Below the pieces are notes generated by a model that worked only from the letters and a program-made list of their open reading frames with translations, was not told where the DNA came from and did not search any database. From assembly GCA_963700285.1 (NCBI GenBank), contig CAVOXA010000009.1, positions 224,001 to 288,000 on the forward strand: 64,000 nt of DNA, in the 5' to 3' direction. This document shows positions 39,544 to 64,000 of the stretch, one piece after another. A program made the position numbers and the translations under genes. How positions within the stretch are numbered: the first letter of the stretch is position 1; each line of letters opens with the position of its first letter. Source of the stretch: an uncultured Chloroflexia bacterium. GTDB taxonomy: Bacteria > Chloroflexota > Anaerolineae > JAAYZQ01.

Positions 39544-39613
39544 GAATCTGAGATTGCATGACGCAACACGCCTGGCATCATGTATAGGAAAACGCTGACT
39601 CGGAGCTGAAACC

Positions 39614-45942: not shown

Positions 45943-46088
45943 CGCTTTTTACCCCTTTTGTGCTGGTGCTTGTGTGCTCTTTCACCGGGGCTGATCAGTG
46001 TTTTGATCTGGTACGGCATGGCAAAACCTGCGGAACGTGGGAGTCAGGCCTTCTGGTCGGGGCTGATCCAGGAGGAGGGAGGAACAAG

Positions 46089-46430
46089 ATGGCAAGTGAT
46101 ACGGAACTGCATCTGATCCAGCGCGCTCGGGCACTCGTAGACGAAGGCTTCTATGTGAACAACCTGCGCGACGTGGTCGACCTGTACCGGGAACCATCCC
46201 TTGTGACCAGGTGGCCCACGGCCCTTTTTGTGTTGCGGACGATCACGCTGAATATCATCTACGAATGGGACAAACAGCCCGTTGTTTCTGCTGATGCGGA
46301 CAGGGTTCGCGCTCAACTGCAGCCCCTGTTCCGCCAGGTCTTGGACCTACTGGCCAGCGACGCAGACGCCGCGCAGGTTTATGCCGCGCTGGACGACCTT
46401 GTGCTGGCCTGGACAGAACTCAGCATCTAG
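46089..46430 (+). CDS. Hypothetical protein (113 aa, helical)
   Basis: Strong GGAGG RBS, MASDTELHLIQR...; no family recognised. Confidence 0.65.
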   Translation: MASDTELHLIQRARALVDEGFYVNNLRDVVDLYREPSLVTRWPTALFVLRTITLNIIYEWDKQPVVSADADRVRAQLQPLFRQVLDLLASDADAAQVYAALDDLVLAWTELSI

Positions 46431-46488
46431 GGCTTCCCTGGCGACCCATTCGATCGCAGTTGGTCCTGAACTAGGGCGGGCCCAGTTT

Positions 46489-46527
46489 GTAGTGCGCGCT
46501 TCAGCGCGCTTCTACGGCGCTGAAGCA
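46489..46527. repeat. GTAG-type REP-like palindrome between convergent genes
   Basis: GTAGTGCGCGCTTCAGCGCGC followed by GCGCTGAAGC; related half site at 6634-6652. Confidence 0.45.
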
Positions 46528-46603
46528 TCTCCTGAGCATAGTCAAAGGCACCCCCAAGAGCGCCCACTGCGAAACAGGTTGTCTTATTAGGACCTGTTCT
46601 TTA

Positions 46604-48049
46604 TCACTGCTCCTGAACCCGATCAGGGCGCACGATCGGCGGCCTGGTCTTCCAGAAGCCTGTCGCCTGCTCAAAGGCGTGGGCTAGCTGGAGCACGCCC
46701 CAGTCATCGTGGTGCCGGCCCACGATCTGCAGACCCACCGGAAGACCCCCTTCCGTGAAGCCACAGGGTACCGAGATGGCGGGCAACCCCAAGACGCTGA
46801 TATAGTAGCAGGACTTCATCCAGTCGATATAAGTCGCCATTTCAACGCCGTTGACCTCAGTCACGTAAGGTTGGGTGACGTCAAAGGGCGGTACCTGGCT
46901 CACGGGGAAGACCATGAACTCGTACTCTTCCATGAACTGCCGGGTGCGCTGGTATAGTTCCGTGTGCTTGCGCTCCGCACGGCCGATCTGGGGGCCCGTC
47001 AGTTTTTTCCCCTCCTCGATGTTCCAGACAATGGTGTCCTTTATCTGCCCAGGGTGGCTGTCCAACAGATCTCCATAGGACAGCTCAAACTGCCAGGCTC
47101 GGAGGACTTTGAAGGCTTTGTCTGCTCCGGCGAAATCAGGCTGGGTTCGGTCGACCCGGCAGCCCAGTTCATCGAAAACCCCGCGCTGGTCCTCCAGCAC
47201 GGCTGTGACCCGTGGGTCGACGGGCAGCCCTCCGAAGTCTGGGCTCCACGCAATCTGAACACCGTGGAAATCGCGATCCAGCGGTCGCCGGAACCCCTCA
47301 CCTGATTCAGCGATGGAGATCGGGGAGCGTGGATCGGGTCCGGCCATGGCGCTGATCAGGAGGGCCGCGTCGCCCACGGTACGGGCCATCGGCCCTTGCA
47401 CGCCCAACGTTGTCCAAGCAGCCAGGCTTGGCCACGAGGGTACGCGGCCGGGAGACGGTCGGAAGCCGACCACATTGCAATAGTTGGCCGGGTTGCGCAG
47501 GGAGCCGCCCATGTCGCTGCCGTCGGCGATGGGGATCAGGCCGCAGGCCAGGGCCACTGCTGCCCCGCCGCTGCTGCCACCACAGGTCTTGGACAGGTCG
47601 TAGGGGTTTCTGGTAACGCCAAAGACCTCGTTGTAGGTCTGGGACCCCGCGCCAAACTCGGGCGTGTTGGTCTTGCCGATGGTCAGCGCCCCGGCCGCCC
47701 TGAGGCGTTCGACGATGAGGGCATCTTCCTCCGGGACAAAATCGGCAAAGATGGGTGATCCGAAGGTCGTCCGGATCCCTTTTGTGGGGATGAGATCCTT
47801 GTGCGCGATAGGCAGGCCATGCAGCGGTCCCAGGGGCTCGCCAAGCGCCACAGCCTGGTCCGCTCGATCTGCTGATTCTATGGCGTGCTCTGGCAGCAGT
47901 GTCACGATGGCATTAACCTCAGGGTTGTAGCGCTCGATCTGCTCGAGGTGCGCAACCATGACCTCGCGCGCGGACAACTCCCTCTTACTAATGGCTTGAA
48001 CCAAGTCCCGGGCGGTCATGAAGCAGATTTCCGAATTGGACACAGTCAT
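46604..48049 (-). CDS. Amidase signature family enzyme
   Basis: LHGLPIAHKD, GKTNTPEF, GGSSGG, GSDMGGSLRNPA, GPMARTV, GLPVGLQIVG. Confidence 0.93.
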   Translation of the reverse strand: MTVSNSEICFMTARDLVQAISKRELSAREVMVAHLEQIERYNPEVNAIVTLLPEHAIESADRADQAVALGEPLGPLHGLPIAHKDLIPTKGIRTTFGSPIFADFVPEEDALIVERLRAAGALTIGKTNTPEFGAGSQTYNEVFGVTRNPYDLSKTCGGSSGGAAVALACGLIPIADGSDMGGSLRNPANYCNVVGFRPSPGRVPSWPSLAAWTTLGVQGPMARTVGDAALLISAMAGPDPRSPISIAESGEGFRRPLDRDFHGVQIAWSPDFGGLPVDPRVTAVLEDQRGVFDELGCRVDRTQPDFAGADKAFKVLRAWQFELSYGDLLDSHPGQIKDTIVWNIEEGKKLTGPQIGRAERKHTELYQRTRQFMEEYEFMVFPVSQVPPFDVTQPYVTEVNGVEMATYIDWMKSCYYISVLGLPAISVPCGFTEGGLPVGLQIVGRHHDDWGVLQLAHAFEQATGFWKTRPPIVRPDRVQEQ

Positions 48050-48173
48050 CCTCCTTCAGGCTAGAGATGATCCTGCCACGGCTTCCCTCTGGATGTTATA
48101 GCACATTCCCGGGCACAGTTCAAGTCTCAAGGGCGTTGGAACGTTAAAACGCTGAACCAGAGGGAGAGTCATC

Positions 48174-48237
48174 TTGACAACATCGGGCAGACTGGTGTAT
48201 CATTTCGATTAGTGGAATACAATTCCACTATCCGGAA
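48174..48237 (+). promoter_or_regulatory. Promoter with tandem IclR-type operator boxes
   Basis: TTGACA-N18-TATCAT, then 15-bp boxes TTTCGATTAGTGGAA (48203) and TTCCACTATCCGGAA (48223), forming the IR TAGTGGAAT-N3-ATTCCACTA. Confidence 0.6.
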
Positions 48238-48295
48238 CGATTTTCGCCCAGATTCTTGTGGCGCCATGTCCTGATTCTGTCCTGGGAGTGCTACC

Positions 48296-49078
48296 GTGCT
48301 CAATGCCTCGTCGGTGGCAGCCGTTGATAGATTGGTGAGAATACTGGATAGCTTTTCGGCAGAGCAGCCGGGATGGTCCCTGGCGGAGCTCAGCGCCCAC
48401 CTGCAGTTGCCAAAAAGCACGCTTCACCGCTTCCTGGTAAGTCTTGAGACCCACGACATCCTGCGTAGGAACCCCGATGACAGGCTCTGGCGCCCCGGCT
48501 ACAGGCTATTGGGCTGGGGCGAGTTGGCGGAAAAGACCATCGGCCTGAATCATCTGGCCCGGCCACTGATGAGCGAGATCGCCGCCGCCACGGGAGAAAT
48601 GGTCGTGTTGACGGTTTACTCTGGACAAGAGGCGGTCTGTACCGAAGTGATCGATGCTCGCCACTCCGTCCGGCTGGCCTTAGAGGTTGGGACGCGGCGA
48701 CCCCTCCACGCCGGCGCATCCTCCAAAATCCTCACAGCCTACCTTCCTGAGGCCGAGGTCCAGGCTGCCATCCGAGATCGGGGCCTGCCCAGGCTATGCA
48801 CCAACACCATCACAGATCTGGAGGATCTGCAGGCCGAGCTGGCGAGGATCCGCGATCTGGGGTACGCCCAGAGCCTGGAAGAAACGGACCCGGGCGCTTG
48901 GGGCATTGCTACGCCCATCTTTGACGGTGGGGGCGCTATGGTTGGCGCCATCGGAATTGCCGGACCGATCCAGCGCTATACCGAGGATCTGGCGCGGCAG
49001 TACGTTGCCCTCTGCCGGGAAGCTTGTCAGCAGGTTTCGGAACAACTTGGCGTGCGACCAGCCCCTGACGCGTCCTGA
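48296..49078 (+). CDS. IclR-family transcriptional regulator
   Basis: SV.AVDR...IL, LPKSTLHRFL HTH, GTRRPLHAGASSK, R..GYA...EE...G...IA.PIFD. Confidence 0.93.
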   Translation: MLNASSVAAVDRLVRILDSFSAEQPGWSLAELSAHLQLPKSTLHRFLVSLETHDILRRNPDDRLWRPGYRLLGWGELAEKTIGLNHLARPLMSEIAAATGEMVVLTVYSGQEAVCTEVIDARHSVRLALEVGTRRPLHAGASSKILTAYLPEAEVQAAIRDRGLPRLCTNTITDLEDLQAELARIRDLGYAQSLEETDPGAWGIATPIFDGGGAMVGAIGIAGPIQRYTEDLARQYVALCREACQQVSEQLGVRPAPDAS

Positions 49079-49171
49079 TCTCGGTGGTTTGTGTGTATGA
49101 GATAGCTGGGGTACAGACAAAAAACACCAGATCCCAGATCTGGTACAAGCAGAACAGATGGAGGGACAGAT

Positions 49172-50101
49172 ATGGCTGATCTTGTCGGAATGGACATTCT
49201 CGACGGTGCGCAGTTCACCCGAAACGATCTGGTGCGGATCATGGAGGTGGCTGCTGATTTCCGGCAGCAACTTGAAGAGGGACAGCCGTCAAAGCTCATG
49301 GACGGCTATGTGATGGGCTCGCTCTTTTTTGAGCCCAGCACCCGCACCCGGCTGTCCTTCGAGACCGCGATGCACCGGCTGGGCGGTGCTGTGGTGGGTT
49401 TTGCCTCGGCCGGAGTCTCTTCCACAGCCAAAGGCGAATCGCTGGAAGATACGATCCGAACCGTTGACCAGTACGTCGACATCATTGCCATGCGCCACCC
49501 CGAGATTGGTTCCGCCCGGCGGGCGGCCGCAGTTGCCGAGGCGGTGGTACTCAATGGCGGCGACGGTGCAGGCCAGCATCCCACCCAGGCCCTGTTGGAC
49601 CTGTTTACCATCGAGTCGGAATGCGGCGGGGTCGACGGCAGGACCATCGTGCTGTGTGGCGACCTGAAGAACGGCCGTACGGTGCACGCCGGGGTCGAGC
49701 TCTACAAGCACTATGACTGCAAGATGATCTTTGTAGCGCCCCAGGCACTCGGAATGCCAGCCGGCATCACCGCCAGCCTTCGGGAACAGGGCATCCTGGT
49801 GGAAGAGACGATGGAGCTCGAGCCAGCCCTGGCCGAGGCGGACGTGTTCTACATGACCCGCATTCAGAAGGAGCGCTTTGCGGACCCGGCCGAGTACGAG
49901 AAGCTCAGTGGCAGCTATATCCTGACCCGTGAGATCGTCGAGCGCGTGAACCCAGGTGTGACGGTGCTGCATCCCCTGCCGCGGGTGGACGAGATCACGA
50001 CTGACGTGGACAGCCTGCCCGGCGCAGCCTATTTCCGCCAGGCAAAGAATGGCGTCTGTATTCGCATGGCCCTGATCGCCCTGGTGCTGGGCAAGGTGTA
50101 G
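49172..50101 (+). CDS. pyrB: Aspartate carbamoyltransferase catalytic subunit, in a catabolic context
   Basis: FFEPSTRT, KGES..DT, MRH, NGGDG..QHPTQ, GDLKNGRTVH, YMTRIQKERF, HPLPR. Confidence 0.9.
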   Translation: MADLVGMDILDGAQFTRNDLVRIMEVAADFRQQLEEGQPSKLMDGYVMGSLFFEPSTRTRLSFETAMHRLGGAVVGFASAGVSSTAKGESLEDTIRTVDQYVDIIAMRHPEIGSARRAAAVAEAVVLNGGDGAGQHPTQALLDLFTIESECGGVDGRTIVLCGDLKNGRTVHAGVELYKHYDCKMIFVAPQALGMPAGITASLREQGILVEETMELEPALAEADVFYMTRIQKERFADPAEYEKLSGSYILTREIVERVNPGVTVLHPLPRVDEITTDVDSLPGAAYFRQAKNGVCIRMALIALVLGKV

Positions 50102-50136
50102 AGCTGCAAGGATGATCAGCTTTTTGGAGTGCGTAC

Positions 50137-52480
50137 ATGGACAAGCATAGATTTAACATCCTGGGCAAGGCAGCGAGGCGCAAGGACGGCGTAGCGCGGG
50201 TCACCGGCCAGGAGAAATATACGCCAGATATCAGGCTGCCGCGTATGCTCCAGGGTCGGATCTTGTCCAGCCCCTACGCCCATGCCCGCATCAAAAGCAT
50301 CGATGCCAGCGCTGCCCGAGGCGATGGGAGCTGTGGTCATCACCTGGGACGATATTCCCCACAAGCGCTACAACGAGCGCATCATCACCATTCCCTCAGT
50401 ATTACACAAAGACCACTATGTACTGGCGGACAAAGTCCGGCGCATGGGCGAGGCCGTGGCCGCTGTGGCAGCCGAGACCGAAGCCTTGGCCGAAAAAGCG
50501 ATGCGTGCCATCCGGGTCGAGTACGAGGTGCTGCCCGTCGTCACCGACCCCTTTGAAGCCATGGCGCCAGGCGCAGCGTCGATCTATGATACCATCGACT
50601 GGGGGCCCGACGAAATCAGGATCGAGAACAACATTGCCTGCCAACGCGACGTGAAAGAGGGCGATGCGGACAATGCCTTTGCCGAGGCGGACGTCGTCGT
50701 GGAGGGTCGTTTCAGCACGCAAAAGATCTACCACGCTCAGATGGAGCCCAAGTCCTGTGTCTGCCGGCCAGAGCCGGATGGCGGTCTTACCGTCTGGCCC
50801 ACGACCCAGTCGATCCACAACGTGCGCATTCTGCTGGGCGAGATTTTCGATATCCCTCTGAGCAAGATCAATGTCAAGAAGGTTCCAGTGGGTGGCACTT
50901 TTGGCTCCAGCATTCAGATGAACCCACCGATCCCCATCTGTGCGGCCCTGGCGCTCAAGGCCGGCCGGCCGGTCAGGCTCACGCTCACGCGCGAAGAGGA
51001 TGTCCACGACCACACGCGCTACGCCTCTCACATCCACCTCAAGCTGGCGGCCAAGAGCGATGGTACGCTGACCGGCGCCGAGATGGAGCTGGTGGCCGAC
51101 ATCGGCGCTCACAATATCCAGGCCTACTCTTTCCTGGGGGTCAGTGTCGGCTGGCTGGTCTCCCTGTACAAGCTGCCCAACGTATGCTACAAGGGCACAG
51201 CCGTTTACACCAACAAGGCCATCTCCTGCGCCATGCAGGGCTTTGGCAACCCCCAGGTCACCTTTGCCGCAGAATCGCTGATGGACGAGCTGGCGGACAA
51301 GCTGGGCATGGATCCGCTGACACTGCGCTTGAAGAACTATGTCGGCCTGGGTGACAGTTTCTGGGGGCAGGGGCCGCTGGTTCGCTCCATCGTACAGAGC
51401 GATGGCGTGCCCGAACTTCTGCAGCAGGGCGCGGAAGCCATCGGCTGGGATGTCCGGCCCCAGCCAGGGACCCAAACCGCTCGCCGCAGGCGGGGCATCG
51501 GCCTGGCCCGCGGCTTCCACACCTCCAGCGCTGGCGCGCCACAACCGGGCGACGTGATTGACTTTTCGGGCGCCATGGTCAAGGTGAACATCGACGGCTC
51601 CGTCGACGTCATCACGGCGTTGATGGACCACGGCGGTGGCACGCTGGAGGCCATCGCCAAGCTGGTGGCGGAGGAGTTGTGCGTGCCCCTGGACAAGGTG
51701 AACATGGCCCCGGCGGAGACCTGCTCAACCGTCTATGACTGTGTAACCCACGCCACGCGCGGCGTGTATGCTGGCGGTGGGGCGGCGGTCAAGGCGGCCA
51801 AAGAGGTGCACCAGGAATTGCTGGATACCGCTGCCCGCTACCTCAACGTCATGCCCGAAGCGCTGGCGCTGCGTCTGGACGAGGGTCTGGGGCAGAGCGT
51901 GATCTATGCCCCCTCCATGCCCGAACGGTGCATGACGTTGCAGGAACTCGCCACCCGCTGCTGGGAACAGAGCTGGAAGACCATCGCCTCGGTGGTCAGC
52001 TACCGGCCGACCAACTGCCCGCCGGCCTATGTCACGGTCTTTGTGGAAGTTGAGGTCGATACCTGGACCGGACAGGTACGGACCCTGCGGGCAGTGATGG
52101 GCAGCGACTGCGGCACGGTGGTCAACCCGGTGATGGCTGCCGGTCAACTGGAAGGTGGCCTCAGCAAGGGCGTGGGCTATGCTCTATACGAGAGCAACGA
52201 GTGGAACGCGGCTGGCCAGGTGGCCGGCGGCGGCTACTGGATCGATGCCAAGACAGCGGCCATCGGCGAGACACCCCACGTGGACGGCCTGACCATCCAT
52301 TTTGCCGATACCTACGAGCCGACTGGTCCCCATGGCGCCAAGGGGATCGGGGAGGCGGCGGCCAACCCGGTGGCGGCCGCCTACGCCAACGCCATCACCA
52401 ACGCCCTGGGAATCCGTTTCTACGAGCTACCCATCACGCCGGAAAAGATCCTGCGGGCGCTGAAAGGTGAGGAGGCTTAG
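50137..52480 (+). CDS. Xanthine-dehydrogenase-family Mo-binding large subunit 1; frameshift near 50310
   Basis: RVTGQ..Y, SPYAHARI, MEP, GGTFG, TREE, QGFG.PQ..FA.E, GQLEGG, GAKGIGE. Confidence 0.88.
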
Positions 52481-52482
52481 CC

Positions 52483-53987
52483 ATGTGCCAGGAAAGCCAA
52501 GCCTATCCCATGACGAACACCCACATCCTCCTGAACGAGTTTGACTATTTCGAGCCGGCCTCGCTGGCTGAGGCGTTTGCCCTGCTGGCCACGCACGGCG
52601 ATCGTGCCCAACTGCTGGCCGGCGGCTCCTATCTGCTGGTGCAGATGAAGCAGGAGCGGGCCGCGCCAGAAGTAGTGGTCAATATCAACCACGTGCATGG
52701 CTTGAGGGGCGCTGCCTGGCGCGACGACCAGCTTTGTATCGGTGCGCTTGCGACGATTCGTGAGACTCACAGTTTGCCAGTGGTACAATCCGGCTACCAG
52801 GCACTGGCCGAAGCCTGCGCTGCCTTTGGCTCGATGCAGATCCAGATGATGGGTACCCTTGGCGGGAACGTGTGCAACGGCTCACCTGCCTCCGACGCCG
52901 TGCCTGCGCTGATGGCCTTGGACGCGCGACTGGTGCTGGCCAGCCAAGGAGGGGAGCGCACTCTTCCGCTGTCCCAATTCTTGCTGGGCCCAGGCAGGAC
53001 CGCTCTGCGGGCCGGCGAGGTGCTGTCTCACGTATTGCTGCCCAAACCAGAGCAGGGAACGGGCAGCGCTTTCATCAAGCTTGCACGCGTGGCCGCCGAT
53101 CTGGCCAAGGTGAATGCCGCGGCTGTCGTCGTCCGTGACGGCGACTAGGATCAAGGACTGCAGAGTAGCCTTTGGTTCTGTGGCCCCTACGGTCATCCGG
53201 GCGGTCGAAACAGAGGCTTTCCTGCATGGCAAAGCCTTCAGCCCGGATCTGGCACTGGCCGCCGGCAAAGTCGCCATGGGCGAGATCACGCCCATTGACG
53301 ACGTGCGCTCCACGGCTTGGTACCGCCGCGAGGTGACCAGGGCGGTCACGTATGATCTTCTGATGGCGGCCTGGGATCGTGCAGCCGAGGAAAGGCCCAG
53401 CAGTGGACGGGGCGCTGGCCAGTACGCCGGTGGGTGTGGCCAAAACCCTGCGCTCAGGACGGCCCGGGCTGCAGGCCGCGGCGGGCGAACAGATGCCGCT
53501 GACGCTGCGGGTGAACGGCGAACAACATCATGCCTGGGTGACCCCCAATGACCTGCTGCTCAACGTATTGCGAGAAGACTTGGAATTCACCGGTCCCAAG
53601 TATGGCTGCGGCATTGGCGAGTGCGGCGCGTGTACCGTGTTGCTCAACGGCCGGCCGGCCCTTGCCTGTCTCACGCTGGCGCTGGCGGCCGATGGAGCCG
53701 AGGTGGTGACGGTCGAAGGCCTCCAGGCCGCCGATGGGGCCTTGCACCCTCTGCAGGAGGCTTTCCTCGATCACCAGGCTTTCCAGTGCGGCTACTGCAC
53801 GCCCGGTATCCTGATGATGTCCAAGACGCTGTTGGATGATATCCCGGTACCGGACGAGGACGACGTACGCGATTACCTGCGCGGCAATCGTTGCCGGTGT
53901 ACCGGTTTCGCCAGCATTGTCCGCGCTGTTCTGAGCAGCGTACAACAACCGCATGGCGCGCTACCGGATATTGGGCGCCAGGATTAG
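52483..53987 (+). CDS. XDH-family FAD subunit, probably fused to a [2Fe-2S] subunit; frameshifts near 53146 and 53390
   Basis: LAGGS.L, QI..MGTLGGNVCNGSPASD, PIDDVRST..YR. No stop before the linker to LRVNGE, GPKYGCGIGECGACTV, QCGYCTPG, GNRCRCTG. Confidence 0.8.
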
Positions 53988-54003
53988 GATATTGGAGGGT
54001 TCA

Positions 54004-54870
54004 ATGCTACCAGTGTACAGTTCGCTGCAGCCGGCGACGTTGGACGAGGCGCTTGGCGTGCTGGCCGGAGTGGATGACGTGCTGCCCATCGCCGGCGGCA
54101 CCAATGTAGTCATGGCCATGCGCGATGGACAGCACCGGGGCAAGACGCTAATGGATGTGACCCGGTTGGCAGAGTTGCGTGGCATCCGCCTGGAAAATGG
54201 ACACGTGGTTATCGGCGGCGGCACCACGGCCGCCGAATTGCTGGACTCCACACTCATAGCCGAACACGCCCGACCTCTGCACCAGGCCTCCCGGGTCTTT
54301 GCCAACCCGCTGATCCGCAACCGGGCTACCGTAGCGGGCAACATCGCGGACGCTTCCCCGGCAGCCGATATGGTCCCGCCCCTGCTGGTTCTGGATGCGG
54401 AGGTGGACCTGGTCAGCGCATCCGGGAGCCGCTGGATCCCGTTGGACCAGTTCATGGTGGGCGTCAACCAGACCATGCGGCAGCCCGACGAGTTGATCGT
54501 CTCCCTCCGCTGGCCGATCCCCACGGCGTGTAGTGCGGGCGCTTTCCACAAACTGGCATTGCGCAAAGGGAGCGCTTGTTCAGTGCTGAGTGTGGCGGTG
54601 CTGGTTCAAGCCAACAGCGCCGGGCACGTCTCTCTGGCCAGGATTGCGATGGGGGCGTTGGCCGCCAAGCCCGTCCGTGCTTACCAAGCTGAAGACGTGC
54701 TGGCAGGCAAAGCCCTGACAGACAATGTCATCGAAGTTGCCGCCCGATTGGCGGCAGAGTCGACAGAGCCCATCGACGACGTGCGCGGGACGGCCTCCTA
54801 TCGCCGGCGCATGGCCGGCGTATTGACCCGACGCTTGCTCACAGAGGCGGCGGAGCTGGGGCAGGAGTGA
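54004..54870 (+). CDS. XDH-family FAD-binding (medium) subunit 2
   Basis: IAGGTN, IRNRATVAGNIADASPAAD, PIDDVRGTASYR. Confidence 0.9.
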   Translation: MLPVYSSLQPATLDEALGVLAGVDDVLPIAGGTNVVMAMRDGQHRGKTLMDVTRLAELRGIRLENGHVVIGGGTTAAELLDSTLIAEHARPLHQASRVFANPLIRNRATVAGNIADASPAADMVPPLLVLDAEVDLVSASGSRWIPLDQFMVGVNQTMRQPDELIVSLRWPIPTACSAGAFHKLALRKGSACSVLSVAVLVQANSAGHVSLARIAMGALAAKPVRAYQAEDVLAGKALTDNVIEVAARLAAESTEPIDDVRGTASYRRRMAGVLTRRLLTEAAELGQE

Positions 54871-54874
54871 TGCA

Positions 54875-55375
54875 ATGACACCGAAACTGGTAGCACTCAA
54901 CGTAAACGGCCGGACGCACCACGTCGCCCTCGAGCCTCACATTACCTTGCTGCGGGCCTTGCGCGAGCTTGGCTACACCGATGTGAAGAACGGCTGCGAA
55001 AAAGGTGAATGCGGGGCCTGCGCCGTGCTCCTGGATGGCGCTGCAGTCAACAGTTGCCTGGTGCTGGCTTGGCAGGCCGACGGTGTAGAGATCGTGACCA
55101 ACGCTGGGCTGGGGACGATGGATGCCCCCCACCCATTGCAGAAAGCCTTCGCCGACCACGGCGCGGTCCAGTGCGGTTATTGCACGCCTGGCATGATCGT
55201 CTCTGCCAAGGCATTGCTGGATCGAGAGCCAGATCCAAGTGAGGAGGAGATCCGCGAGGCGCTCTCAGGCAATCTCTGTCGCTGTACCGGCTATGGGCAG
55301 ATCTTTGAGGCGGTCAGGGTTGCCGCAGCCGAGATCCGGTCAGACACGGCTCGGTACGAGAAGGGAGGTGCATGA
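54875..55375 (+). CDS. XDH-family [2Fe-2S] (small) subunit 2
   Basis: KNGCEKGECGACAV, NSC, QCGYCTPG, GNLCRCTGY. Confidence 0.93.
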   Translation: MTPKLVALNVNGRTHHVALEPHITLLRALRELGYTDVKNGCEKGECGACAVLLDGAAVNSCLVLAWQADGVEIVTNAGLGTMDAPHPLQKAFADHGAVQCGYCTPGMIVSAKALLDREPDPSEEEIREALSGNLCRCTGYGQIFEAVRVAAAEIRSDTARYEKGGA

Positions 55376-57765
55376 TGGAGGCACGATACAGGGCCAAGCC
55401 ACTCCCGCCCGTCAATCTGCCGGAACTCCGCCAGGTGGGCAAACCTTTGCGCCGGATAGATGCCATGGGCAAGGCGGTGGGTCACACCACCTATGCCGGT
55501 GATTATTCCATGCCCAACATGCTCCACGCCAAGGTTCTCCGCAGCACCGAGCCGCATGCCCGGATCGTGTACCTGGATGTAAGCCGGGCTGCTGAGTTGC
55601 CGGGTGTGGCCTGCGTGCTCACAGCCGCCGATATGGAAAACGCCGGAAAACTCACCACCGATCTGCCGGGCCAGACCGGGCAGCAGCGACGGGCCGGCTC
55701 CGACGCTCAGGTGCTGGCGGCCGAGATCGTCCGTTTTATGGGTGAACCCATCGCTCTGGTGGCGGCCGAGACCGTCGAGATTGCCGAGCAAGCGCTGAGA
55801 CTGATCGAGGTCGAGTATGAGCCCCTGCCCGGTGTGTTTGACCCTCACAAAGCACTCGAGCCCGGCGCCCCCGTGATCTACGAGCCGGATAACCTGGTCG
55901 CCAGGTGGAAGATCCGCCGGGGGGATGTGGACAAGGGCATGGCGGCGGCCGACTTGATCGTAGAGAACACCTTCCGGGTCCCCTTCCAGGACCATGCCTA
56001 CATCGAGCCTGAAGCGGGCCTGGCCTGGGTGGATGGGCAGGGTGTGATTAACATCCGGGTCTGTACCCAGGTGGTGGAGCATTTCCGCAGCATCGCTCGC
56101 GCTTTGGGGGTACCCCAGAATAAGATCCGTGTGCGCGGAACGCTGCTGGGTGGCGGCTTTGGTGGCAAGGAGGATATCACGGTAGAGATCTTTTTGGCGC
56201 TTCTTGCTCAAAAGACCGGCCAACCAGTCCGCCTGGCCTACACCCGTGAGGAGTCCTTGATCGGCCATTCCAAACGCCATCCCTTCACCATCACCCATCG
56301 TACCGGCGTGCAGCGCAATGGCCGGCTAACGGCGGCTGAGATCAAGCTGGTGGCTGATTCGGGCGCCTATCCCTACCTCAGCCCCTACGTCCTGCTCTAC
56401 GCTACGGCCATGTCCAGCGGCCCGTACCGCATTCCTCACCTCAAGGTCGATGGCTATGCGGCTGCCACGAATCAGACATTCGCCAGCGCCTTCCGTGGCT
56501 TTGGCGGTCCGCAGGCCTGCTTTGCCTATGAGGGTCAGATGGACGCCATCGCCGAGGCGCTGAACATGGACCCTCTGGAGTTGCGCAAGATCAACTACCT
56601 GCACACGGGCGATCCCATCGCCACCGGACAGGTCATTGACAGCGCGGCTTGGCTGGAAGAGACGGCAAGCCGCGCGCTGGCAGCCCTGGGGGAAAAGACG
56701 CCCAACCACGGCCCGGTCAAGACGGGCTGGGGCTTTGCGTCCTATTTTCAGTCGTATGGCCGCATAACCTGGATGCACGATACCAGCCGCGCCTGGGTAG
56801 GTCTGGAACTGGATGGCACGGCCGTGATCCGCAGCGGTGTGCCGGACCTGGGTGCGGGACAGATCAACACCCTGGCCCAGATCACGGCCGAGATCCTGGG
56901 CGTGTCGCTGCACGACATCACCGTATACAGTACCGACTCGGCCGTGACACCGCTGGCCGGTACCTCCACAGCTACCCGGCAACTCTACATGTCCGGCAAC
57001 GCGGTGAGCATGGCGGCCAACGCCGTCCGGCAGGTACTGCTGGAGCGGGCACAGAGGCATTTTGAGGAGGAAATCGAGGATCTGGACCTGGCCGATGGGC
57101 GGGTGTTCGTCAAGGGCGATCCGGACCAGTCGATGCCGCTTAGCGAACTGGCGGCGATCTGTGCCGCCGAGGGGCTGGAGCTGTCCAATCTAGCCCAATT
57201 CAATGCTCCCTTTACCGGCCCGCTGGACCCCGAGACCGGCCAGGGGCGGATCTGGCCTGATTTCACCTTCGGCGCCCATGCCGTGGAGGTGGCCGTGGAT
57301 ATGGAGACCGGCCAGGTGGATATCCTCAAGAGCATCGGCTGCCACGACGTGGGCCGGGCCATCAACCCCGATGCCTGCGAGGGCCAGATCGTCGGCGGTG
57401 CACACCAGGGCCTGGGCTACGCCATGTTGGAAGGATACCGCATGAAAGAGGGGCGGGTTGTTACGCCATCGCTGGCCGAGTATCTCCTCCCCACTGCCGT
57501 AGACTTTGTGCCCAGCCAGGCCATCATCCTGGAATCGGGTACCGGCAAAGGGCCGTTTGGTTCGAAAGGGATCGGTGAACCAGCCCTGACACCAGCCGCA
57601 GCGGCTGTGGCAAACGCTGTCGCCGACGCGGTTGGAGCCCGTGTCTACGAGCTGCCGCTGACGCCCGAGCGGGTGTTGGCGGCTATCGATCAGGCCCAGT
57701 CCGGCCAGCTCTGGCACAAAAAACGGGGCGAACCCAGCGCAGAAGTCCCATCCGACCCTCAGTAA
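55372..57765 (+). CDS. XDH-family Mo-binding large subunit 2
   Basis: RS..PHARI, HAYIEPE, GGGFGGKED, AFRGFGGPQ, GAGQ, ATRQ, GQIVGG, SKGIGEP. Confidence 0.92.
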   Translation: MMEARYRAKPLPPVNLPELRQVGKPLRRIDAMGKAVGHTTYAGDYSMPNMLHAKVLRSTEPHARIVYLDVSRAAELPGVACVLTAADMENAGKLTTDLPGQTGQQRRAGSDAQVLAAEIVRFMGEPIALVAAETVEIAEQALRLIEVEYEPLPGVFDPHKALEPGAPVIYEPDNLVARWKIRRGDVDKGMAAADLIVENTFRVPFQDHAYIEPEAGLAWVDGQGVINIRVCTQVVEHFRSIARALGVPQNKIRVRGTLLGGGFGGKEDITVEIFLALLAQKTGQPVRLAYTREESLIGHSKRHPFTITHRTGVQRNGRLTAAEIKLVADSGAYPYLSPYVLLYATAMSSGPYRIPHLKVDGYAAATNQTFASAFRGFGGPQACFAYEGQMDAIAEALNMDPLELRKINYLHTGDPIATGQVIDSAAWLEETASRALAALGEKTPNHGPVKTGWGFASYFQSYGRITWMHDTSRAWVGLELDGTAVIRSGVPDLGAGQINTLAQITAEILGVSLHDITVYSTDSAVTPLAGTSTATRQLYMSGNAVSMAANAVRQVLLERAQRHFEEEIEDLDLADGRVFVKGDPDQSMPLSELAAICAAEGLELSNLAQFNAPFTGPLDPETGQGRIWPDFTFGAHAVEVAVDMETGQVDILKSIGCHDVGRAINPDACEGQIVGGAHQGLGYAMLEGYRMKEGRVVTPSLAEYLLPTAVDFVPSQAIILESGTGKGPFGSKGIGEPALTPAAAAVANAVADAVGARVYELPLTPERVLAAIDQAQSGQLWHKKRGEPSAEVPSDPQ

Positions 57766-57774
57766 GGAGAAGTA

Positions 57775-59142
57775 GTGGTGGAGATAAAGTACGATCTATT
57801 GTTCGCCGGCGGTACGGTGGTCACTGGCCAGGGCATGCAGCTGGCCGACGTGGGGGTCTGGGGAGAAAAACTGGCAGCCATCGGCCGGGATCTGCCTCAA
57901 GAGGCAGCCAGGGAGGTCATTGACGCCAGTGGCAAGTACATCCTGCCAGGCGCTATCGATGTGCACGTGCACCCTGTCTATCTCGACAGCGTGGAGCACT
58001 GTTCTGCCCTGGCCGCTTATGGCGGAACCACGACCGTGATCCATTTTGCCTACGCTCGTACCGGAGAAAGCTTGCTGGACAAGGTCGAGGAGATGAGGGC
58101 GGACGGGTTGGCCAACTCCCGGCTGGACTTTGGCCTTCATGGTGGCATGTTTGAGGCTCCCCGTCAAGTGCCCGAGATCCCAAAAGTGATGGATCTGGGC
58201 GTCCGCTCGTTCAAGTTCTTCCTGACCTACCTCAAGCAGGGCTGGTACACCGATGACTACCAGTTGATCAAGGCCATGGATATCCTGGCAGAACAGGGTG
58301 GCATGGCCATGGTCCATGCTGAGAACGGCGGCGCCATCGATTACCTGGAAGACAAATACCTGAAGGGCCCGGGGGCATCGGCCCGTTACTTTAATGCTTC
58401 CCGGCCTGCCGCACTGGAGGAGGAAGCTGCTTTCCGCTCGATCCGCCTGGCAGAGCTTGTAGATTGCCCGCTGTACATCGCTCACGTAACCTCGGCGCGG
58501 ACGGTTGACCTTATCCGCCGCGAGCAGGCTGCCGGACGCAAGGTCTTTGCCGAGACCTGTCCTCAATACCTGACCCTTACCCAAGAGATCATCGAGGAGC
58601 GTGGGGCGCTGGCCAAGATCGGGCCGCCCATCCGATCGGCCGCTGACCGTGACGCGATATGGGCCGGCCTGAGGGATGGCACGCTGCAAGCAGTCTCTTC
58701 GGATCACGCGGCCAAGGCCAAAGATGTGAACGGCGATTTCCTGGAGCAGGGTTTTGGCTCGCCGCAGATGGAAACGCTCCTGCCGCTGGTATACGATGGC
58801 GGCGTGAATCGGGGCCGGATCAGCCTGGTCCGGCTGGTTCAAGTGCTGTGCGAAAACCCGGCCCGCATCTTTGGTCTCTACCCGCGCAAGGGTACTCTGG
58901 CCATCGGCTCGGACGCCGACTTGGTGGTTTTGGATCCCAACCACGAGTTCACCATTCGCTCAGAGAACCAGCACTCGAAGGCTGGCTATACCTTGTACGA
59001 GGGACGTACGGTTCTGGGTTGGCCAGAGATGTCCTTCCAGCGCGGGCAGCCCGTCCTCTGGCAGGGGCAGGTGGTAGCGAAACCCGGCGGTGCCCATTTC
59101 CTGCCGGTACAGCCAGCCCAAATCGAACCACTGACCGTCTGA
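57775..59142 (+). CDS. Cyclic amidohydrolase (dihydropyrimidinase/hydantoinase/allantoinase family)
   Basis: PGAIDVHVH, GGTTT, SFKFF (carbamylated Lys), VHAEN, YIAHV, ETCPQYL, PPIR, SSDH, NPARIFGLYPRKG, GSDADLV. Confidence 0.9.
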   Translation: MVEIKYDLLFAGGTVVTGQGMQLADVGVWGEKLAAIGRDLPQEAAREVIDASGKYILPGAIDVHVHPVYLDSVEHCSALAAYGGTTTVIHFAYARTGESLLDKVEEMRADGLANSRLDFGLHGGMFEAPRQVPEIPKVMDLGVRSFKFFLTYLKQGWYTDDYQLIKAMDILAEQGGMAMVHAENGGAIDYLEDKYLKGPGASARYFNASRPAALEEEAAFRSIRLAELVDCPLYIAHVTSARTVDLIRREQAAGRKVFAETCPQYLTLTQEIIEERGALAKIGPPIRSAADRDAIWAGLRDGTLQAVSSDHAAKAKDVNGDFLEQGFGSPQMETLLPLVYDGGVNRGRISLVRLVQVLCENPARIFGLYPRKGTLAIGSDADLVVLDPNHEFTIRSENQHSKAGYTLYEGRTVLGWPEMSFQRGQPVLWQGQVVAKPGGAHFLPVQPAQIEPLTV

Positions 59143-59169
59143 CTCGAATCACGGCTGTTTCGCATACCC

Positions 59170-59196
59170 GTCATCCTGAGTGCAGCGAAGGATCTC
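59170..59196. repeat. Half copy of the REP-like element at 29318
   Basis: GTCATCCTGAGTGCAGCGAAGGATCTC versus GTCATTCTGAGCGCAGCGAAGAATCTC (24/27 identical). Confidence 0.65.
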
Positions 59197-59213
59197 GGTA
59201 ACTGGAGGAACAC

Positions 59214-61081
59214 TTGGAACCAAAGATACTCACCGGAAGCGAAGCGTTGGCCATGGGCGCGCTGCGCGCCGGGGTGAAGGTCGTGACAGGCTACCCCGGC
59301 ACGCCATCTACCGGAGCCATTGACCAGCCTGCTCAAGATGGACTTGCCGGACCGCCACGTGGAGTGGAGTACCAACGAAAAGGTAGCCTTTGAGATTGCC
59401 GCCGGGGCGGCTTGGGCCGGCCAGCGGGCAATGTGTACCATGAAGATGTCGGGGGTCAACGTGGCCTACGACTCACTGATCTCCATCGCCTATTCCGGCG
59501 TCAATGGCGGTCTGGTAATCTATGTAGCCGACGATCCTGGCGTGAGCGCGGGTATGTGCGAGCAGGATACGCGCGGTTTCGCGCTTATGAGCGACCTGCC
59601 CATCCTAGAACCGGCCACGGTGGCAGAGGCCTACGAGTTGGTCCCGGTGGCCTTTGATCTCTCCGAGCAGACCGGCACCCCGGTCTTTGTCCGCTTGGTG
59701 ACGGCGCTGGCCAACTCATACGCGTCCGTGACCGTGGAGGAGCCCCTGCCTCCCGCCCTTCGCGAGCCGATTCTTGAGCGCGACATCGCCAAGTACACCA
59801 AGGCTGGTTCGCTCATCTGCCTGAACCAGCACCGCGACCTGATAGCACGCCTGGCAAAGTCGGCGGCAATCATCGAGCAGATGGGCATCAACCGGCTGCG
59901 CCTCGCGGAAAATGCTGGTGGGTTGGGCGTCGTGGCCGCTGGGGTGGTCAACTCCTACCTGGAAGAGGGTTTTGAGGTTACGGCCGAGTATGGTTCTGAC
60001 CGCGAGGCTGTCTCGGTACTAGAGGTCCGGGCCAGCCACCCGTTCCCGGCTCGTCAGGTGCAAGAGCTTCTGGCCCACTGTGGCGTCATCCTGGTACTGG
60101 AGGAGCTAGAGCCGTACCTGGAGCAGGGTGTGATCATGGAAGCCCAGCGGGCTGGCTTTGAAGGGCGTGTCGTGGGCAAGCTGGATGGGCCACTCAGCCG
60201 ACTGGGCGAATACGGCCTCAAGCAGGTAGTGGAGGGGCTGGCGGAGGCGCTGGATCTCTCGATCCCGCCAGGCCTGTTCCAGGGAAGCATAGAGGCGGAG
60301 ACCCTGGCCGCCGCCCGGCCCATCACCGTCTGCGCCGGATGCCCGCACCGCGGAACCTACCTGGCCATCAACCGGGCCTTGAGAAGACTGCGGTTCAAAA
60401 AGGACGAGGTGATGGTGACCGGCGACATCGGCTGCACCATCCTGGGTATGAACCCGCCCTTTGACACGGTCTGGAACGAGGTCTCGATGGGGGCCAGCAT
60501 CAGCCTGGCCCAGGGCTATGTCCACGGCGGCGTCGAGACCCCGGTCATTGCCACCATCGGCGATTCTACCTTCTTCCATGGCGGCATCCCGGGGCTGATC
60601 AACGCTGTGCAACACCAGGTTCCACTGACCCTCATCATCATGGACAACGGCTGGACGGCCATGACCGGTATGCAGGTCAACCCCGGTACGGCCGGTGCAT
60701 TCCAGTCTGGCGGGCAACAGGTGGATATCGCCAGGATCATCCCGGCGCTGGGCGTTGAGCACTTTTTTGAGATCGACCCCTTTGACCTGGCTGGCTCCGC
60801 AGCGGCGATCCAGGAGGCCCTGACCCTGCCCAGGGTCAAGGTGATACTGGCCCGGCAGGAGTGCGCTATCCAGTCCGTCCGGCACGGCGACCAGGCCGGC
60901 CTTGTCCAGGTCGATGCCGAAAAGTGCAACCTGTGCAAGCTGTGCATCATCCAGACCGGCTGTCCGGCTATTGATATCGGTCGAAGATACCATCGTGATC
61001 GATCCCAGCCTGTGCGACGGCTGCGGGCTGTGTGCGGAGGTATGTAACTTGGACGCCATCGTGAAAGAGCCAGCGCCATGA
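59214..61081 (+). CDS. iorA: Indolepyruvate:ferredoxin oxidoreductase alpha subunit; frameshifts near 59320 and 60985
   Basis: TTG start with GGAGG; [21 protein letters not shown]....[32 protein letters not shown]-terminal 2x[4Fe-4S]. Confidence 0.9.
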
Positions 61082-61664
61082 AATTCGACCTGTATCTGGT
61101 TGGGGTAGGCGGCCAGGGTGTCCTGACCATCGGTGACGTCATCACGGAAGCGGCGCTGGGCTCGGGGATTCCAGCCAACTTTTATCCGACCAAAGGGATG
61201 GCCCAGCGCGGCGGTTTTGTCAAGGCTCAGGTGCGGTTGGGCCGCGCGATGGTGGGACCGCAGATCCCCGAGAAGGGCGCGGACCTGGCCATTGCCATGG
61301 AGCTTTCAGAATCGCTGCGGGCGGTGCGCTTTGTCAGGCCCGGCGGCGAATTTGCTGCTCTTTGGGCACGTGTGGCAGCCCACAGCCGTCATGCTGGACA
61401 AGGCGCCCTATCCTGGCCTGGAGGCCGTCGAGGAACAGGCAGCGGCCGCGGAGATCAGTCCTTCACTACCTTGACCCGGCGGGCGTACCGGTGCTCGATG
61501 GAAGGCCCGTCCCGGCCAATGTGTACGTGTTGGGCGCTGCCCTGGGCTTGACACGCCTGGGAAATGTGCTGGACCCCGCCGCGGTGGAGGAACTGGTCGT
61601 CTCCCGCTGGAAACGCGGCGTGGAAGCCAACCGGCTGGCATTCCGGGCCGGGCTAGAGGCTTAG
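61078..61664 (+). CDS. iorB: Indolepyruvate:ferredoxin oxidoreductase beta subunit; frameshifts near 61355 and 61455
   Basis: VGVGGQG, GMAQRGG, AD...A.E..E..R, ANVYVLGA, N..AF.AG. Confidence 0.88.
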
Positions 61665-63723
61665 ATGGGCCTGCAGAGTCTGTTCTACCCGCGCGGGGTG
61701 GCCGTCATCGGATCTACGTCCCTGGGAAAACTGGGCTACCAGCTCATCCGCCAGTTGCAGGACGGTGGCTATCGGGCCGTGTACGCGGTGAACCCGACGG
61801 GCAAAGGGCTACCCGCAGACCAGGACCAGGCTGCCGTGCCAGGCTTTGCATCCATGATACAGATCGGCCCGCCCGTGGACCTGGCGGTGATCGTCTCTCC
61901 TACAAGTACCGTGCCGGCTGTGCTGGAGGATTGTGGTCGGGCGGGGATCAAGGCGGCCGTCATTATCACGGCCGGCTTCTCCGAGGTAGGCAATCACGCC
62001 GGAGAGGCGGAGGTGGCGCGTGTGGCACGGCAGTACGACATCCGCTTCGTAGGCCCCAACTGCGCTGGCATTGTCAACACGCTTCACAAGCTGACCCCCA
62101 CACTGGAGACCCTGCCGCCTGCTGGGAAGTGTATCGCTTATCGCCCAGAGCGGTGCCGTGGGTGGTGTGGTATTGGCCTGGGCCAAGGAATTCGGACTGG
62201 GCATCTCCAAGTTTGTGAGCTATGGCAACGGGGCGGACCTGCGCGAAGTCGAGTTGTTGCGCTACCTGGCCGGCGATCCGGACACGGACGTGGTGGCGCT
62301 GTACATCGAGAGCGTCAGCGACGGTCGAGCGTTCATGGAGGCAGCCCAGTACTGTACCCGGCACAAGCCCCTGCTGGTTATCAAATCCGGCCGGACCGAA
62401 TCGGGGCAGCGGGCGACCCTGTCCCATACCGGCTCGATGGCTGGTGCGGATGCGGTGTACGATGCGGCGCTGCAGCAGTGTGGGGCCATCCGTGTGCAAA
62501 CAGTGGAGGAGCTGTTTGACGCTTGCAAGGCCTTCAGCGTTCTGCCGCCGCTGGATGGCGACCGGGTTGTTATTGTGACCAATTCTGGCGGTCCGGGGGT
62601 GATGGCGGCGGATTGGGCGGAGGAGATTGGGCTGGACGTGGCCGAACCGAGTTCGATGGGCCAAGCTCGGCTTGCCGAGTTCCTGCCCCCCCACTGCGCC
62701 TTCAAGAATCCGGTGGACCTGACCGTCGAGGGCACCGAAGACGGCTATCGCCGGGCGCTATTGGCCCTGCTCGAAGAATATGACGCCGCGCTGGCCCTGA
62801 ATATCGCCCCGGCCTACCTTGACTCGGTGTCGCTGGCGCGTGGCGTCTGCGACGCGGCCAAAGGGAGCGGGAAGCCGGTCGCGGCGGCCTTTTTGCCTGC
62901 CCAGATCGTCAAGGATGCGCTGCCCTACCTGGAATCGCGGGGGATTCCCAGTTTTGCCACTGGAGAGCGGGCGGTGAGCGCGCTTGGTCACATGGCCCGT
63001 CACCAGGCCCGGCAGAAGGCTTGGCGGCAACCGCCAAGCCCTGACCCCGAACAACAGATCCCCGGACTCCTTCCTGGCTCGGTGCAGATGTTGGAACACG
63101 AGGCGATGGACTGGCTGAAGGCCAATGGGTTCCCCGTCCCGGACTATTGCTTTGCAGCCACGGCGGAAGGTGCTCTCCAGGGATGCCGCGAGATCGGTTA
63201 CCCGGTGGTGATGAAGGTCGTTTCGCCTGATATCCTGCACAAATCCGACGTGGGTGGGGTGGTCTTGCATGTCCAGGATGGCGCCGCGGCGGAAGCTGCG
63301 TTCTCCCGACTGCGCGACGCGGCCGCCGGCAAGGATTTTCGCGGCGTTGTCATCTACCCCATGCTCCAGGGGGCGCAGGAAGTCCTGCTGGGCCTTTCAA
63401 GGGACCCCCAGTTCGGCCCGGTAGTGGCCTGTGGCCTGGGCGGCGTCTATACCGAAGTCTGGCAGGATATCGCGTTGCGGGTGGCGCCGGTGGATACTCA
63501 GGAGGCCGGAGACATGATCAGAGAGCTCAAGTCGTTGCCCCTGCTTCAGGGTACGCGCGGCAAGCTTCCCTGCGACTTGGGTGCCCTGGCCGGCGTACTG
63601 GCCGAATTCTCTCAACTACCCTTCCGCTACCCGGATATCAGTGAGGTCGATCTCAACCCGGTCTTTGTCTTCCCCGAAGGGATTGTGGTGGGAGACGTAC
63701 GAATCATCAACAGGAGCAAGTGA
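61665..63723 (+). CDS. ADP-forming acyl-CoA synthetase (fused alpha/beta); frameshift near 62130
   Basis: P..VAVIGS, ITAGFSE, GPNC.G, QSGA, S.GN.ADL, K.GRT..G..A..SHTGS, TNSGGPG, NPVDL, HKSDVGGV, DPQFGP, DLNP. Confidence 0.9.
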
Positions 63724-63725
63724 CT

Positions 63726-64000
63726 ATGGCATCCAAGGTCAAACCCCAACCAGGATTGAAGAACTTGCGACCCTACGTACCCGGTACACCCATAGAGGAT
63801 GTTCAGCGCCAGTATGGCCTCAAGGATGTCATCAAGCTGGCATCCAATGAAAACCCCTTTGGCTCCTCGCCCAAGGCCCTCGAAGCGATCCGCCAGGCGC
63901 TGCCCCGGCTCAACCAATACCCTGACTCCGGATGCCATGCACTCCGCCACGCCCTGGCAACAGCCCTCCAGGTGGATCCAAAACAGCTTGTCGTCGGCAA
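63726..64000 (+). CDS. hisC: HisC-family (histidinol-phosphate/aromatic amino acid) aminotransferase, 5' part
   Basis: Not in ORF track. Read manually: MASKVKPQPGLKNLRPYVPGTPIEDVQRQYGLKDVIKLASNENPFG.SPKA...YPD...LR..LA....V....LVVG, open to the window end. Confidence 0.85.
   Translation, partial: MASKVKPQPGLKNLRPYVPGTPIEDVQRQYGLKDVIKLASNENPFGSSPKALEAIRQALPRLNQYPDSGCHALRHALATALQVDPKQLVVG

Follow-up and report, generated by a model that had tools for sequence, protein, structure and literature searches.

The textbook Hut route converts histidine to glutamate via urocanate and a hydration step. Here, we describe an operon whose products may process the same histidine-derived skeleton differently; it lies in a 64,000-nucleotide stretch of DNA (the window; contig CAVOXA010000009.1, positions 224,001 to 288,000, or G000:C9:224001-288000 in our genome set) from an uncultured Chloroflexia bacterium, the assembly of which, G000, is 89% complete. 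One of its predicted reactions, the hydrolysis of hydantoin-5-acetate, is that of carboxymethylhydantoinase (EC 3.5.2.4), an enzyme of orotate fermentation in which the hydantoin arises from carbamoyl-aspartate as a side product; to our knowledge, no gene has been assigned to this activity. The ErtD/ErtE route of ergothioneine likewise passes through a hydantoin (hydantoin-5-propionate) and then an N-carbamoyl amino acid; ErtD models score far below their cut-off on the window proteins.

Two further systems share parts of the gene set. In Thermococcales, a histidine aminotransferase and an ADP-forming acyl-CoA synthetase (ACS) specific for imidazole-acetate are known (PMC9986279, PMC3942289), and the same three enzyme types as encoded here are proposed there to convert histidine to imidazole-acetate with ATP gain. 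In that system, imidazole-acetate is described as the fermentation product and no oxidoreductase is reported as assigned to histidine; in the operon described here, ring-opening genes stand together with those for a HisC-type aminotransferase and a fused ACS. In the 2,8-dioxopurine (uric acid) pathway XdhAC-YgfK-SsnA-HyuA-YgeW-YqeA, an enzyme of the xanthine dehydrogenase (XDH) family precedes hydantoin ring opening, and a hydantoinase, a catabolic carbamoyltransferase and carbamate kinase yield ATP (bioRxiv 10.1101/2025.04.24.650524). Its substrate is a purine, YgeW is not a true aspartate carbamoyltransferase (ATCase), and no 2-oxoacid:ferredoxin oxidoreductase (IOR) or ACS takes part. A locus of this purine type is present in our genomes separately from the operon.

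The operon encodes an IclR-family regulator, a PyrB-type ATCase, two XDH-family molybdenum hydroxylases (Mo1 and Mo2), a hydantoinase-fold amidohydrolase (hereafter the hydantoinase), an IOR (IorA and IorB), an ACS and a HisC-type aminotransferase. We consider it probable (roughly 0.7) that these enzymes carry histidine through imidazole-acetate, hydantoin-5-acetate and carbamoyl-aspartate to aspartate and carbamoyl phosphate, a scheme in which every substrate, and the order of Mo2 before Mo1, is deduced from gene content, conservation, co-occurrence, residues and trees. The aminotransferase, IorAB and ACS would yield imidazole-4-acetate and one ATP; Mo2 and then Mo1 would use water to hydroxylate the ring at carbons 2 and 5; the hydantoinase would open the resulting hydantoin-5-acetate to N-carbamoyl-aspartate; PyrB would split the latter, and a carbamate kinase encoded elsewhere would give a second ATP. 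The same PyrB, perhaps with the hydantoinase, would also feed pyrimidine synthesis. The formulae balance (imidazole-4-acetate + 2 H2O - 4[H] = hydantoin-5-acetate), and the hydrolysis product of hydantoin-5-acetate is the ATCase product. No description of this route was found in the literature searched, most subscription journals lying outside its coverage.

Distribution of the gene set

An earlier sequence-only reading of this DNA had proposed the histidine route and had made conservation of the gene set, and co-occurrence of its XDH/hydantoinase and IOR/ACS halves, a test of the proposal; both were borne out. The full set, defined as Mo1, the IorA orthologue, the hydantoinase and the cluster PyrB in one genome, is present in 18 of 401 class-level genomes spread over 7 families, and a hydantoinase orthologue in 33 of the 401, plus G053 with a split copy. 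The IorA orthologue occurs in 17 of 34 hydantoinase genomes (the copy of G087 being split) and in 0 of 46 controls. Mo1 is found in all 17, including five genomes of family f16 in which IorAB is unlinked, so that the two halves co-occur even where unlinked. Other IOR paralogues of G000 and its relatives sit at loci separate from the operon.

The full set is also associated with the absence of the Hut route. Urocanase was matched in 277 of the 401 class-level genomes, the unpublished genome G357 being among the background positives, and the hydantoinase and urocanase counts were assumed to refer to the same sample since their handles agree. Urocanase is present in 3/18 full-set genomes versus 262/367 genomes without a hydantoinase orthologue (Fisher p 4e-6, a value overstated because kin are not independent, the 18 genomes belonging to 7 families). 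Within family f16, it is absent from all 8 cluster genomes and present in both of the others. Neither hutU nor hutH was found in G000. Two genomes that carry both cluster and urocanase, G001 and G297, have divergent hut operons (L410:5802-10738, L411:3437-10203), with urocanases scoring ~600 bits as compared to ~920 for the f16 copies, and may have acquired them separately.

Three cluster types were distinguished. Type A is the gene set of the window. Type B (7 genomes, full order in 5) reads IorA'-IorB'-hydantoin racemase family-hydantoinase'-class I aminotransferase-PyrB'-ACS', with the racemase-family gene directly before the hydantoinase and IOR, ACS and aminotransferase paralogues other than those of type A; a carbamate kinase gene adjoins the cluster in G065. 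Searches found no Mo1 orthologue in any of the 7 type B genomes, nor one of Mo2 in the 4 tested for it. Type C (4 genomes, order in 3) reads Mo1-Mo2-hydantoinase''-N-carbamoylase-cyclodeaminase-like, the N-carbamoylase taking the place of PyrB. Some type B clusters (L263, L264, L265, L266, L268) may serve to ferment histidine that has been oxidised beforehand, for example hydantoin-alanine.

Molybdenum hydroxylases, hydantoinase and aminotransferase

Both hydroxylase sets comprise molybdenum, FAD and iron-sulfur subunits and retain the GxGE motif, which we take to be the catalytic glutamate signature of the XDH family. Models for xanthine dehydrogenase, 4-hydroxybenzoyl-CoA reductase and nicotinate dehydrogenase all fell below their curated cut-offs on these enzymes, Mo1 and Mo2 had only distant matches in the PDB, and a search of the ESM Atlas returned family names only. 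In a search of 72,556 plasmid records, Mo1 had its best match (44%, the next best being 38%) on the Streptomyces plasmid NZ_CP109164.1, 3.8 kb downstream of an nnhA gene whose product matches the solved NnhA at E 5e-238; nnhA was on no other plasmid record searched. A FastTree built from 26 large subunits places the plasmid enzyme as sister of the Mo1 clade (support 100). A second nnhA copy on the same plasmid is followed by genes for a dihydropyrimidinase, a carbamoylase and XdhC. Matches of Mo2 (<=38%) and of the hydantoinase (<=41%) in the plasmid records were uninformative.

NnhA hydrolyses 2-nitroimidazole to imidazol-2-one, which its host can metabolise fully (PMC11659421). The simplest inference for the plasmid is a route from imidazol-2-one to hydantoin and carbamoylglycine; on this reading, Mo1 would act on C5 of the imidazolone, which by elimination leaves hydroxylation of C2 to Mo2. 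The two systems would share an imidazol-2-one intermediate, sister Mo enzymes and a nearby ring-opening enzyme, a hydantoinase with a carbamoylase in the NnhA system. They differ in that the NnhA system gains its C2 oxygen by nitro hydrolysis, such that one Mo enzyme would suffice, and in that it would act on an unsubstituted ring with an ordinary dihydropyrimidinase devoid of K313. The plasmid itself (L463:8993-16313, L465:13952-19828) holds a candidate complete pathway that would lead from 2-nitroimidazole to glycine by way of imidazol-2-one and hydantoin. Neomoorella humiferrea, Ca. Formimonas, Anaeroselena and others have Mo1-like proteins (55-60% identity), and one cluster has a reductive-dehalogenase-like iron-sulfur protein gene inserted between its two Mo sets (L025:4900-6096).

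The predicted structure of the hydantoinase (predicted local distance difference test, pLDDT, 93) has the D-hydantoinase fold, with a template-modelling (TM) score of 0.91 to 1nfg, and its binuclear metal ligands H63, H65, K146, H180, H236 and D309 are invariant. Scores against TIGR02033 (cut-off 393) are 387 for the window protein, 413 for type B and 369 for type C. K153, K280, K313 and K315 are invariant in 119/119 close homologues. Dihydroorotases have three invariant substrate residues, Arg, Asn and His (PMC9771888); in the same 119 homologues these positions are V67, Y92 and K313, so that the residue test for dihydroorotase failed. The alignment of K313 with the substrate-binding His suggests a carboxylate-bearing substrate. 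An ordinary dihydropyrimidinase shows no hydrolysis of dihydroorotate and only poor binding of hydantoin-acetate (PMC4437985).

The aminotransferase scores above the TIGR01141 cut-off. A separate hisC sits in the his operon of G000, so the cluster gene is probably not the biosynthetic copy, as the earlier reading required. Its active-site pocket is mixed and not plainly Tyr-rich, which places it between HspAT and ArAT under the criteria set out in PMC4703992. A PDB search found no close relative of the ACS.

PyrB, pyrimidine supply and competing explanations

PyrB scores 351 against the TIGR00670 cut-off of 237 and keeps STRT, K87, R108, H136, R169, R230, Q232 and HPLPR, the roles of which we take from E. 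coli ATCase; the aspartate-binding set is retained in types A and B. In a quick tree it belongs to a clade of its own of 19 members (Shimodaira-Hasegawa-like approximate likelihood ratio, SH-aLRT, 99), apart from the family's pyr-operon PyrB. Relatives' pyrB genes adjoin pyrC, pyrD or pyrF, and the cluster PyrB does not group with this housekeeping pyrC-pyrB clade. The four other carbamoyltransferase matches of G000 are two ornithine carbamoyltransferases and two members of the purine-type cluster. A second pyrB-like match (36-39%) in 13 genomes was considered as a biosynthetic copy and rejected, the six loci read being purine-type and the one aligned lacking R230 and Q232. That purine-type cluster (G000:C1:1678000-1706000 and L336-L341) encodes two tandem carbamoyltransferases, a carbamate kinase and Mo enzymes, and one of the transferases is ATCase-like yet lacks the residues for the aspartate beta-carboxylate.

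A carbamate kinase, which the earlier reading proposed to look for beyond position 64000, was not among the open reading frames seen there; it is, however, encoded elsewhere in G000, once with arginine deiminase genes and once in the purine-type Mo cluster, and also in 5/5 other genomes tested. CarB was missing in five of six genomes tested (G000, G001, G037, G041 and G028) and present in G053; its absence was rejected as a cluster-specific trait, not being specific to cluster genomes. In the genomes without CarB, carbamate kinase may supply carbamoyl phosphate.

Several findings weigh against the histidine route, at least as a purely catabolic one. The earlier reading had named a pyrB serving as sole biosynthetic copy as a reason to abandon it, and no true ATCase besides the cluster PyrB was found in G000 or in the other type A and B genomes searched. 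A canonical dihydroorotase is present in 3/18 full-set and 0/7 type B genomes as compared to 42/56 unselected relatives (a count made with two queries and a 43% identity line chosen after the hits were seen). G001 (same genus), G205 and G297 carry both cluster and urocanase and, because they do, the lack of Hut genes in G000 may reflect its 89% completeness. The aminotransferase pocket combines HspAT-like D97 and Y19 with ArAT-like F121 and F258, and the link to NnhA comes from one plasmid record at 44% identity. Type B genomes have IOR, ACS, hydantoinase and PyrB yet no Mo1, and carry urocanase in 7/7, which leaves their entry substrate unexplained; type C genomes keep urocanase (4/4) and have no IorA orthologue. 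In a 401-genome phylum sample, Mo1 was found besides G000 only in G448, of another Chloroflexota class, where the Mo pair has a PreA-like reductase as its neighbour and the 23 kb read contain no hydantoinase; this locus (L458:2725-19720) also encodes a DUF6282 protein, a fumarate-reductase-like flavoprotein and a third Mo enzyme, which is split. Altogether, the imidazole side of the proposal gains from the urocanase anti-correlation, the IOR-Mo co-occurrence, the racemase, carbamate kinase and carbamoylase variants and the NnhA-linked sister of Mo1; the sole ATCase and the mostly missing dihydroorotase make a purely catabolic picture incomplete.

The module seems to have displaced pyrBC, since pyrC is mostly absent alongside the PyrB clusters of types A and B and kept with the carbamoylase of type C (3/4). 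Neither dihydroorotase nor CarB was found by search in G000, nor did a six-frame scan of that genome for dihydroorotase motifs find any; a DHAPH codon pattern gave 10 matches in 5 genomes, none in an amidohydrolase frame, and the other TIGR00857 matches read were without dihydroorotase motifs except in G127 and G212. With the ordinary pyrC-pyrB pair gone from these genomes, PyrB probably also supplies pyrimidine synthesis, with the hydantoinase possibly doubling as dihydroorotase; orotate salvage is the alternative to such a role. A bifunctional hydantoinase would explain both patterns, because hydantoin-5-acetate and dihydroorotate are two cyclic isomers of carbamoyl-aspartate. It is conceivable, although we lean against it, that the histidine skeleton itself passes through imidazole-acetate, hydantoin-5-acetate and carbamoyl-aspartate to dihydroorotate, one hydantoinase-derived enzyme opening the five-membered ring and closing the six-membered isomer with Lys in place of the dihydroorotase His.

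Three other explanations were weighed against the proposed histidine route. The imidazole chemistry may be right and the feed other than free histidine (N-methyl-histidines, hercynine or ergothioneine products, histamine or imidazole-propionate), or the aminotransferase, IOR and ACS may act downstream on the amino acid freed from the hydantoin. An MttB-type methyltransferase orthologue adjoining the cluster in L031, G205 and G127, a methyltetrahydrofolate:corrinoid methyltransferase inside the G212 operon, MTHFR after the cluster in L026, the retention of Hut in types B and C and a type C carbamoylase near the ErtE model (394, cut-off 520) would fit such a feed. We nevertheless find it unlikely, as the aspartate-specific PyrB fixes a two-carbon side chain, the outcome of IOR decarboxylation of histidine, and the loss of urocanase points to histidine itself; moreover, we know of no precedent for a HisC-type enzyme acting on aspartate or an IOR on oxaloacetate.

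About equally improbable is that the hydantoinase is a non-orthologous dihydroorotase and PyrB a biosynthetic ATCase, the Mo pair hydroxylating a pyrimidine or azine carboxylate to orotate for reduction by PyrD/PyrK. This would account for pyrC missing in 15/18 full-set genomes and pyrD kept in 13/18 (10 of them without pyrC), often in pyrF-pyrE-pyrD-pyrK operons lacking pyrB and pyrC; G000 itself has pyrD-pyrK and pyrF-E. It would also accommodate G123 and G286, which retain pyrB, pyrD and the hydantoinase and in which neither a Mo1 nor an IorA orthologue was found, the stand-alone hydantoinase-pyrB pairs (L029, G205:C8) and the PreA-like gene of G448. It is at odds with the replacement of the three dihydroorotase residues, and it leaves unexplained the urocanase loss, the racemase, the carbamoylase variant, the HisC/IOR/ACS link and the NnhA-linked sister of Mo1; nor do we know of a natural pyrimidinyl amino acid precursor. 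Finally, that one half degrades purines or dihydropyrimidines and the other independently ferments Phe/Trp, as the family labels XdhA, dihydropyrimidinase and IOR and the ArAT-like F121/F258 might suggest, is very unlikely given that the Mo, hydantoinase, IOR and ACS models all score below their curated cut-offs on the window proteins, that purine clusters, dihydropyrimidinases and IORs are encoded separately in these genomes, that the two halves strictly co-occur and that PyrB would have no role in such routes.

Gene layout and implications

The features of the operon are listed in Table 1. In agreement with the earlier description of a tight, co-oriented run, all twelve named genes from position 48296 onwards lie on the + strand, with intergenic gaps of -4 to 93 bp. 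The run had been thought to continue past the window end; only the remainder of its final gene does, with the stop 847 bp beyond (G000:C9:288847), and the open reading frames seen thereafter are unrelated genes with no racemase or transporter among them.

Table 1 Features of the operon (window positions)
Feature	Coordinates	Strand	Remarks
IclR-family regulator	48296..49078	+	Precedes the cluster in several relatives too
PyrB, aspartate carbamoyltransferase	49172..50101	+	Asp-binding signature complete (K87, R169, R230, Q232); no other ATCase in the genome; separate clade
Mo1 large subunit, XDH family	50137..52480	+	Retains the GxGE Glu; predicted to hydroxylate imidazol-2-one at C5; frameshift near 50318
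Mo1 FAD subunit fused to [2Fe-2S] subunit	52483..53987	+	Single ~490 aa ORF in relatives; frameshifts near 53144, 53401
Mo2 FAD subunit (FAD2)	54004..54870	+	
Mo2 [2Fe-2S] subunit (FeS2)	54875..55375	+	
Mo2 large subunit	55372..57765	+	33% identity with Mo1; by elimination, predicted to hydroxylate the imidazole ring at C2
Hydantoinase-fold amidohydrolase, distinct subfamily	57775..59142	+	Invariant K153, K280, K313, K315; predicted hydantoin-5-acetate hydrolase, possibly dihydroorotase as well
IorA, 2-oxoacid:ferredoxin oxidoreductase alpha	59200..61078	+	Orthologue restricted to cluster genomes; frameshifts near 59322, 60983
IorB	61078..61664	+	Frameshifts near 61350, 61458
ADP-forming acyl-CoA synthetase (ACS), fused alpha-beta	61665..63723	+	Frameshift near 62124
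HisC/ArAT-type (Ibeta) aminotransferase, 375 aa, last gene	63720..64000, on to G000:C9:288847	+	Paralogue of his-operon HisC

Five genes of the run are frameshifted in this assembly. These are likely long-read sequencing errors, since the extra base at 50318, 59322, 60983, 61458 and 62124 is absent from close relatives' short-read contigs, the same-genus genome G001 differs at the frameshift sites and has its own indels elsewhere, and the relatives' frames are intact. A glutamate-synthase-like gene run at 37021-42288, recognised from its sequence only, is frameshifted as well, a further sign of assembly indel errors. An Rfam scan of 46000-64000 returned zero matches. Short metatranscriptome contigs covering the operon in one run were not taken as evidence of expression.

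An amidase gene (PRK07486 subfamily, above cut-off; 46604-48049, - strand) diverges from iclR, a placement seen only in G000 and G001. The MttB-type methyltransferase orthologue, with corrinoid and methyltetrahydrofolate genes, recurs by the cluster (L031:8756-10189, L349:2838-4313, L449:6860-8311, L262:3161-11248, G000:C1:1559463-1560857) and might demethylate N-methyl-histidines or hercynine; G000 holds ~15 MttB paralogues.

If correct, the proposed route would be a second, oxygen-independent means of breaking histidine down completely, unrelated to the textbook one and yielding ATP at two steps as well as reducing equivalents. Imidazole-acetate would gain a fate, two new Mo-hydroxylase activities on imidazole rings would be defined, and the hydrolysis of hydantoin-5-acetate would have its gene. 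Displacement of both Hut and pyrC points to a dihydroorotase that has so far gone unrecognised, and to nucleotide synthesis being tied to amino-acid catabolism; should histidine carbon indeed reach pyrimidines, the cluster could displace both Hut and pyrBC in cells mostly without carbamoyl-phosphate synthetase. The Mo1-like enzymes of cultured Moorella/Neomoorella make the route directly testable.

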